Source: Escherichia coli (GTDB taxonomy: Bacteria; Pseudomonadota; Gammaproteobacteria; Enterobacterales; Enterobacteriaceae). From it: a stretch of DNA of 64,000 nt. The translations under genes were made by a program, and so were the position numbers. The stretch lies in the NCBI RefSeq assembly GCF_017348835.2, contig NZ_CP071375.1. One strand, written 5' to 3'. The notes below the pieces were generated by a model. That model was given only the letters and a program-made list of their open reading frames with translations. It was not told the origin of the DNA and ran no database searches. Below, in pieces: positions 12,058 through 12,468 of this stretch. The first letter of the stretch is position 1, and each line of letters starts with the position of its first letter.

Positions 12058-12159
12058 TGAACAGTGTGCATTTTGGCAATAAATCTGAAACCAACTGTCA
12101 TGTCGGTTTTTTTAAAGGCCGAAGGTGGTAAACCTTCGGCCTTAGCTACGTTTCCTCAG

Positions 12160-12243
12160 TTATTCAATAAACTGACGGATCAGTTCCAGCAGCGCGATTA
12201 GCGCCTTAAGAACGATGAGAACTTTATCGAGAAAAGTTTTCAT
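12160..12243 (-). CDS. candidate type I toxin: 27-aa DinQ/TisB-like hydrophobic peptide (below the ORF-track cutoff)
   Basis: Hand translation gives ATG at 12243 to TAA at 12162-12160: MKTFLDKVLIVLKALIALLELIRQFIE. The AAGGGAG SD lies 6 nt upstream, inside the perfect palindrome CTCCCTTAAGGGAG (12250-12263). A GC hairpin (12117-12141) follows 19 nt after the stop. ALIALLELIR matches my recollection of DinQ. Confidence 0.5.
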   Translation of the reverse strand: MKTFLDKVLIVLKALIALLELIRQFIE

Positions 12244-12374
12244 CCGTTGCTCCCTTAAGGGAGAAAGACAATCACAGCTTACCCTTACGTTGCCTGTAAC
12301 TATGATTTTCTTCATGTGCTAGATGAGGAATGTTTCATTTCTGCCCGGAACCACCAAGTCTTGGGCGGAAAAAA

Positions 12375-12406
12375 TAAAAAAACCGACTGTCATGTCGGTT
12401 TTTTTA
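12375..12406. terminator. bidirectional rho-independent terminator (mnmH 3' end; possible sRNA terminator on +)
   Basis: accgac-tgtcat-gtcggt hairpin flanked by an A7 run upstream and a T7 run downstream. A degenerate copy lies at 12092-12113. Confidence 0.7.
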
Positions 12407-12468
12407 TATCTGTATTCTGGTGCAACCATTCTGTTCTCACGACAATCGCCGTTTCAGAATACCGCCCA

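Follow-up and report, generated by a model that had tools for sequence, protein, structure and literature searches.

A dinQ-like toxin locus with an AgrB-like antisense RNA between ybbP and mnmH of Escherichia coli, most likely reduced to a silent remnant by a 186-bp deletion

Does a short open reading frame (ORF) that resembles a membrane toxin still belong to a working toxin-antitoxin pair? The question is raised by a 526-bp spacer between the convergent genes ybbP and mnmH (selU) on an Escherichia coli chromosome, part of a 64,000-nucleotide stretch of contig NZ_CP071375.1 (assembly GCF_017348835.2) that we refer to as the window and to which all coordinates without a locus number apply. 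The initial annotation of this DNA had proposed a candidate type I toxin-antitoxin locus here, built around a 27-codon minus-strand ORF similar to the toxin DinQ. As judged by DinQ and AgrB models, the assignment holds for the family, whereas the copy in the window has lost 186 bp and is probably no longer a working pair. We consider it very likely that the spacer holds a chromosomal locus of the dinQ-like (dql)/AgrB-like family and that the window copy is a 186-bp deletion derivative, in all likelihood a silent remnant.

The ORF was found where it had been predicted (Table 1), reading ATG AAA ACT through GAA TAA, and it forms the 3' portion of a 51-codon minus-strand ORF (12315..12160). Its product scored 40.9 bits against the NCBIfam DinQ model (cut-off, 30) and fell short of the DqlB model NF041473 (24.5 bits; cut-off, 35), being 27 rather than 31 aa long; a Pfam search of the 27-aa peptide gave no match. 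The initial annotation had given the DinQ sequence and a shared block, ALIALLELIR, and rightly so: K-12 dinQ (L004 1789..1706) translates to (V/M)IDKAIIVLGALIALLELIRFLLQLLN, and BLASTP aligned the window peptide with DinQ at 15/19 identities (79% over the 19-residue core), with ALIALLELIR identical. The ORF had also been called untracked, which was true of that reader's own ORF track but not of RefSeq, which lists it as WP_349808740.1 (27 aa) or WP_001308457.1 (51 aa, long form); RefSeq/PGAP names it dinQ at the identical ybbP-mnmH site in PE164 and other strains. Conservation, which had been named as a check on the ORF, is evident. E. coli, E. ruysiae, and Escherichia sp. E1V33 share one peptide sequence and differ in synonymous changes only, and the ratio of nonsynonymous to synonymous substitution rates (dN/dS) against five Serratia homologues is low, at about 0.1 to 0.4, a range slightly biased by the choice of loci through a 14-nt exact match within the ORF.

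Divergent from the toxin ORF lies a match to the full-length Rfam model RF02891, AgrB, which scored 52.6 bits (gathering score, 40) in a local search as well as in a gathering search of the whole window. AgrB is the antisense antitoxin of DinQ (PMC3567139), and an AgrB match adjoins the toxin in 12 of the 14 family loci tested. The 5' end of the small RNA (sRNA) forms 29 to 32 paired bases with the leader of its own toxin in 10/10 loci, with sequences that differ from locus to locus; with pairing kept despite these differences, antitoxin and target co-vary. Of the 10, the E. coli pair ranks among the weakest (-42.6 kcal/mol; 18 contiguous pairs, a mismatch, and then more pairs), similar to the plasmid dqlB locus in the same comparison (-41.4 kcal/mol). 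A plus-strand sRNA ending at a perfect hairpin had been postulated from the start, and the AgrB match supports that 3' end; the proposed start near 12300, driven by a TATGAT at 12301-12306, did not hold, as homology places the start at 12319 and the TATGAT at -18..-13 relative to it. The predicted pairing of the AgrB-like RNA is nearly the same with the canonical dinQ leader (-35.5 kcal/mol) as with its own leader (-35.3 kcal/mol), so cross-talk between the ybbP-mnmH locus and canonical dinQ is conceivable from these modeled energies.

The ribosome-binding site of the toxin has the arrangement known from dinQ. The Shine-Dalgarno (SD) sequence AAGGGAG lies 6 nt upstream of the ATG within the palindrome CTCCCTTAAGGGAG (12250-12263), exactly as first described, and the hairpin CUCCCUUAAGGGAG has a predicted folding energy of -6.5 kcal/mol alone and -10.0 kcal/mol with an extended stem. 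Chance alone would give about 4 perfect 14-nt palindromes per 64 kb (64000/4^7), so a single one is not significant by itself; this one carries weight because it is placed at the conserved SD-hairpin position of the DinQ family. All 17 family variants examined have a CUCC...GGAG hairpin 6 to 8 nt 5' of the start codon, and its fifth pair varies in a compensatory manner (A-U, U-A, or C-G); the hairpins were inspected singly, and the C-G pair of E. coli and of L026 was read by eye. Sequestering of the ribosome site, which the initial annotation had suggested for this palindrome, was demonstrated experimentally for the corresponding dinQ hairpin (Kristiansen et al. 2016, RNA 22:1739, PMC5066626). 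Conservation extends to both sides of the hairpin. The ACAGGCA of stem-loop SL4 is invariant over 12 family loci in our alignments, and the GC-rich hairpin noted earlier 3' of the stop codon has aligned counterparts in the dinQ, dqlB, and Serratia-homologue terminators, with an invariant GGAAACGTA just before it.

These results bear on the simplest alternative, that the ORF arose by chance and the hairpins are merely ybbP and mnmH terminators plus repetitive extragenic palindromic (REP) elements. REP-type repeats (11950-12060) and terminators are indeed present, and a palindrome of this length is expected several times in the window. Set against curated-model matches for both the peptide and the sRNA, a peptide conserved across genera with mostly synonymous change, and co-variation of sRNA and target, however, a chance origin is scarcely credible.

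On sequence grounds, the locus belongs with the dql genes of the DinQ/AgrB type I toxin-antitoxin family and is a paralogue of canonical dinQ-agrAB. It has a hydrophobic single-helix peptide with the DinQ signature, a divergent AgrB-type sRNA gene, an SD hairpin, and an intrinsic terminator; absent from the window are promoters of its own for toxin and antitoxin and a leader of about 195 nt. The dinQ/agrB mechanism is established experimentally (PMC3567139; PMC5066626), including toxicity of the peptide on overexpression and rescue by the sRNA (PMC3567139), and toxicity and base-pairing antisense rescue were shown experimentally for dqlB/agrB of pOXA-48 (PMC12365149). In PMC5066626, dql genes are defined as occurring on chromosomes and plasmids, sometimes alongside dinQ, and as frequently annotated with a longer N-terminus. 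They share with our locus a small DinQ-signature peptide, a lengthy 5' untranslated region (UTR) with SL2, SL4, and a four-element SD switch, a sigma-70 promoter, an intrinsic terminator, co-occurrence with dinQ, and the longer annotated N-terminus (here, the 51-aa form). The window copy differs from the dql genes presented there in being a deletion derivative without elements 1 and 2 and without both promoters.

A scan with a family-specific DNA pattern, limited to one genome per species, gave 42 family loci from Escherichia, Shigella, Serratia, Pantoea, Salmonella diarizonae, Citrobacter, Photorhabdus, Erwinia, Cedecea, Dryocola, and plasmids. Their peptides form three groups: DinQ-type, 31-aa DqlB-type, and a 26-27-aa group with the pattern MKT(F/L)(I/L)DKVLIVLKAL(I/V)ALLELIR. 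The window peptide falls in the last group, and its closest relatives are the Serratia peptides MKT(F/L)(I/L)DKVLIVLKALVALLELIR, not DinQ. Within dql, its nearest kin is probably the chromosomal 27-aa group rather than DqlB. This group may be the one named dqlA, and the E. coli ybbP-mnmH locus may be among the 14 genes listed in PMC5066626. The DqlB/agrB addiction module, found on pOXA-48 and on IncL/M, IncI1, IncX, and other plasmids (PMC12365149), has the same family and architecture, and its locus shows about 77% nucleotide identity to the window locus over part of the ORF and the terminator. DqlB, however, is a plasmid-borne peptide of 31 aa (MINLLIIVLRAVAALANALIAILELIRQFID), whereas the window peptide has 27 aa and is chromosomal. 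It was a DNA search that brought up the plasmid dqlB; when the 27-mer was run by tblastn on the plasmid collection there was no match, for which the low-complexity filter or the short query is suspected. Separately, Escherichia-type dinQ or plasmid-type dqlB turned up in Lachnospiraceae metagenome-assembled genomes (L013, L025, L038), Chryseobacterium (L026), and Haemophilus sputorum (L045). For these contigs, labeled as outside the Enterobacterales, contamination or mis-binning of enterobacterial or plasmid sequence is the most likely source.

Is the locus instead a true orthologue of the SOS-induced dinQ? It passes the NCBIfam DinQ equivalog, PGAP calls it dinQ, and it resembles K-12 dinQ-agrAB (Weel-Sneve et al. 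2013, PMC3567139) in its divergent agr gene, which at its 5' end repeats part of the toxin leader, in its homologous SD hairpin and terminator, and in its 19-residue core (79% identity). However, it lies between ybbP and mnmH rather than at the gor-arsR site, and PE164, which here has the sequence of the window, matches in two places; we take these to be this locus and canonical dinQ. The peptide starts with ATG rather than GTG, has two extra N-terminal residues, and ends three residues shorter, with RQFIE in place of RFLLQLLN. The locus has one agr gene, not two, its sRNA-target pairing is weaker, and its closest relatives are the Serratia peptides. A search for CTG-N10-CAG detected the LexA box of K-12 dinQ (L004 1983), used as the control, and found none in window positions 11940-12470, in agreement with the initial annotation, or in the intact allele described below (L003 1540-2260), so that the operator is absent from intact and deleted alleles alike. 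With these differences, orthology to dinQ is highly improbable. Read from its sequence, the intact allele is a second, LexA-independent chromosomal copy beside the SOS-regulated dinQ. RefSeq uses the product name "damage-inducible type I toxin DinQ" on NZ_CP114128.1, NZ_CP060950.1, and NZ_CP101920.1. For the ybbP-mnmH paralogue, the "damage-inducible" label is unsupported and misleading because there is no LexA box; the DinQ equivalog model seems to over-reach to the dql group.

The initial annotation had also likened the peptide to TisB and ZorO. The likeness stands as one of design; no sequence relationship was found, since the Rfam scan for OrzO and IstR gave only OrzO-P at 24.1 bits (gathering score, 60), matching the terminator alone on the minus strand, and no match related to IstR/TisB.

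What sets the window copy apart emerged from comparison with intact alleles. These carry a 22-nt direct repeat, TTCA(TGT/CTC)GCTAGATGAGGACTG, twice, 186 bp apart; copy 1 is the AgrB target in the toxin leader, and copy 2 forms the 5' end of the AgrB-like gene. Relative to the intact allele, exactly the 186 bp between the repeats are missing from the window, and a single hybrid copy remains (Table 1). Antisense target and sRNA gene are thereby merged into one, and a trans-located target is absent from the window, whereas it is present in the intact allele L003 (strain QA-1986 630). That allele is collinear at the nucleotide level with K-12 dinQ-agrA, with which it shares the terminator, ORF, SD hairpin, ACAGGCA stem-loop, AgrB target, AAGTCCTGG...GGTGGTGC stem-loop (SL2), -10 element, and divergent agr gene. 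E. ruysiae and Escherichia sp. E1V33 have the intact form too, and the Serratia loci, dqlB, and dinQ are collinear with it, which makes it ancestral. The promoter-bearing 186 bp are present in L003, L031, L047, and L040, and a 164-nt core of the missing segment occurs in 1,321 of 5,426 complete E. coli genomes (about a quarter). A 40-mer across the junction, by comparison, occurs in 2 of the 5,426 (PE164 and F2_81, both from pigs).

To define what was lost, K-12 landmarks from PMC5066626 (+1 at L004 1983, element 1 at U16-C28, element 2 at G94-G106, the AgrB target at G88-A119, and elements 3 and 4 at U167-G187) were mapped onto an alignment of 12 sequences. In this alignment, intact E. coli dql has a -10 element TACAAT at L003 2053..2048, a +1 near 2040, and a 196-nt leader. 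The deletion removed the toxin promoter; the leader's first ~107 to 122 nt, a stretch that holds element 1, SL1, and SL2 and whose exact end is ambiguous within the repeat; the analogue of element 2, GGAGAGAGG; and the promoter of the AgrB-like gene, which in L003 is TTGAAT-17-TATAAT, 7 nt upstream of the same sRNA start.

By homology with dinQ, the intact allele would have a promoter of its own for the toxin (-10 TACAAT), and the mRNA made from it would carry a leader of about 196 nt. The full-length RNA would be translationally inert, its SD sequence locked in a CUCCC/GGGAG hairpin; 5' processing would then free the upstream element GGAGAGAGG to pair with the anti-SD strand and make the ribosome site accessible. 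Through its 5' end, the divergent AgrB-like sRNA would pair with that GGAGAGAGG element, allowing the SD hairpin to re-close, and this pairing would probably trigger cleavage by RNase III. The 27-aa peptide is predicted to form a single transmembrane helix and would be expected to depolarize the inner membrane. Thermodynamic prediction of SD accessibility, expressed as P(SD unpaired), is consistent with such a switch. For the K-12 control, the model recovered the known direction, with the active +44 dinQ RNA (0.22) more open than the inactive +1 RNA (0.08). Intact dql gave 0.02 at full length, 0.13 to 0.18 when 5'-truncated at +31 to +91, and 0.01 from +101 onward, where element 2 (GGAGAGAGG) is removed. 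Every hypothetical minus-strand transcript of the window gave 0.01. In the window, toxin leader and AgrB-like gene body became fused through the deletion between the antisense-recognition repeats, which left an intact ORF behind an SD hairpin predicted to stay permanently closed, beside an sRNA gene without a promoter. We infer that the window copy is silent both transcriptionally and translationally, because both promoters and the SD-opening leader element have been lost.

The main competitor to a silent remnant is a pair that still works, with the sRNA made from TATGAT, the toxin mRNA from mnmH read-through or an unrecognized promoter, and the two RNAs acting as a perfectly complementary cis-antisense pair. 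The ORF, SD sequence, terminator, and sRNA body are all intact, and the critical positions A2 and T6 are present in TATGAT, 12 nt upstream of where homology puts the sRNA start. The best -35 element for TATGAT, however, is CTTACC (3/6), and a simple sigma-70-type promoter scan of window positions 11940-12470 found no promoter-like site on either strand. Read-through from mnmH would have to pass a terminator with a perfect 14-bp stem and a long T-run, the SD-opening element is deleted and the SD predicted closed in all transcripts modeled, and the allele is very rare (2 of ~1,323 carriers). A working pair is therefore unlikely, although it is the least improbable of the alternatives weighed here.

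Several points nonetheless weigh against a family locus silenced by deletion. The pairing of the E. coli-allele AgrB-like RNA (-35 to -43 kcal/mol) is weaker than that of K-12 agrB (-58 kcal/mol), and in a short-window comparison it is weaker even than that of agrA (-42.7 kcal/mol), an RNA that does not repress dinQ. SD accessibility differs only modestly between the RNAs, and these differences are thermodynamic predictions. In the intact allele, the toxin promoter (TACAAT, with a poor -35) itself falls below the threshold of the simple scan, and even this allele may be weakly expressed. TATGAT could give a slightly 5'-extended AgrB-like RNA, and mnmH transcription continuing past its terminator could yield some minus-strand RNA. 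The deletion allele was seen in only two assemblies, both from pigs and not necessarily independent isolates. A literature search found no paper on the ybbP-mnmH locus.

A second allele with a toxin-disabling deletion is found at the same site. Three copies of the motif GATGAG(A/G)ACT lie at the locus, one each in the ORF, the leader target, and the 5' end of the sRNA. E. coli DG341-1 (L007, 2590-2629) has a 108-nt deletion that runs from the GATGAGAACT of the ORF to the GATGAGGACT of the AgrB target, corresponding to window positions 12224-12318 plus an upstream part of the leader. Codons 1 to 7 (including the start), the SD sequence, and the target are lost; the promoter-bearing AgrB-like gene stays. 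This junction is present in 189 of 5,426 complete E. coli genomes, in some of which PGAP still labels the locus dinQ. The 186-bp and 108-bp deletions each run between copies of the antisense-recognition motif, which suggests repeat-mediated loss of the toxin. We tentatively propose, with less than even confidence, that the direct repeats needed for antisense recognition in a divergent type I module may act as a built-in decay route, by which two deletions have disabled the toxin in ~191 of ~1,323 carriers of a locus whose intact allele is a LexA-independent DinQ paralogue. The orz-only variant in MG1655 (PMC11264685) is a similar case of strain-level loss of parts of a divergent type I module with remnants left; it differs in belonging to the Zor/Orz family, whereas the losses at the ybbP-mnmH locus are two specific repeat-mediated deletions. 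K-12 was tried as a source of the remnant and rejected: in MG1655 (L005, 521800-532500), the site is occupied by the rhsD element, with no dql/AgrB-like sequence left and the ybbP-selU spacer filled by rhsD, ybbC, ylbH, ybbD, ylbI, and ylbG. It seems that one site is occupied by either the Rhs element or the dql module.

As a type I locus, then, the spacer was correctly recognized but is not new: the family was described in 2013-2016, a relative was validated in 2025, and the ORF is already in RefSeq. New at the strain level are the promoterless deletion derivative, the common second deletion that disables the toxin, and the ill fit of the "damage-inducible" label. An annotated dinQ ORF is not the same as a working toxin, as illustrated by the window copy, without promoters and activating leader, and by the 189 genomes with the other disabling deletion; toxin-antitoxin censuses based on ORFs will therefore over-count. 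The intact allele, a chromosomal DinQ paralogue apparently outside SOS control, would offer an easy target for work on type I toxins and persistence.

Table 1. Coordinates of the dql/AgrB-like locus and its flanking genes in the window
Feature	Coordinates	Strand	Remarks
ybbP	ends at 11942		804-aa ORF
Degenerate second AgrB-type terminator hairpin	12088..12114		Plus-strand T-run; lies where the ybbP terminator is expected
Toxin mRNA GC-rich terminator hairpin	12115..12143	minus	-20.7 kcal/mol; homologue of dinQ SL9
dinQ-like (dql) toxin ORF	12160..12243	minus	27 codons plus stop, MKTFLDKVLIVLKALIALLELIRQFIE; matches NCBIfam NF041472 toxin_DinQ
SD sequence AAGGGAG in SD-sequestering hairpin	12244..12271	minus	Homologous to dinQ elements 3:4/SL5
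Retained 3' part of the toxin 5' UTR	12272..12310	minus	Homologue of dinQ SL4, ...GUUACAGGCAACGUAAGGGUAAGCUGUGAU
Deletion junction	12311..12332		22-nt direct repeat present as one hybrid copy, TTCATGTGCTAGATGAGGA(C>A)TG; C>A at 12330
AgrB-like antisense sRNA gene	12319..12407	plus	Without promoter here; full-length match to Rfam RF02891
Bidirectional terminator with perfect 14-bp stem	12374..12407		-17.5 kcal/mol; arms 12374-12387 and 12394-12407
mnmH (selU)	13563..12469	minus	364-aa ORF; followed by allS and allA

The locus is bracketed, as the initial annotation had described, by two copies of a 27-nt hairpin plus T-run, one degenerate (12088-12114) and one within the perfect stem (12380-12406). 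On the plus strand, the perfect stem forms the AgrB-like RNA's 3' end; on the minus strand, it is the mnmH terminator, and it is homologous to the agrA/agrB terminator of K-12. The left hairpin is an 83 to 96% copy of the AgrB terminator (96% here; up to 40 nt long in other strains). Only the terminator part is similar; the Rfam scan found no AgrB body upstream of this hairpin, which may be left over from a second agr gene or from the arrival of the module.

The REP repeats mentioned above, of the REP/bacterial interspersed mosaic element (BIME) type, lie just 3' of ybbP and gave sub-threshold Rfam matches to ES036/CssrF and naRNA4. Their units vary by strain, with one in the window and in L003 and three in L002 (1588-1859). 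A 621-bp query, which takes in ~40 bp of ybbP and ~50 bp of mnmH, matched intact alleles over an interval of 807 bp, or of 1,008 bp with two extra REP units, and the number of REP units accounts for the two lengths. Elsewhere in the window, other above-gathering Rfam matches, unrelated to the locus, at 25525-25591 (+), 25457-25499 (+), 47011-47084 (+), and 3386-3463 (-), are the sRNA STnc480, ES036 (CssrF), one tRNA, and naRNA4 (REP-associated RNA).

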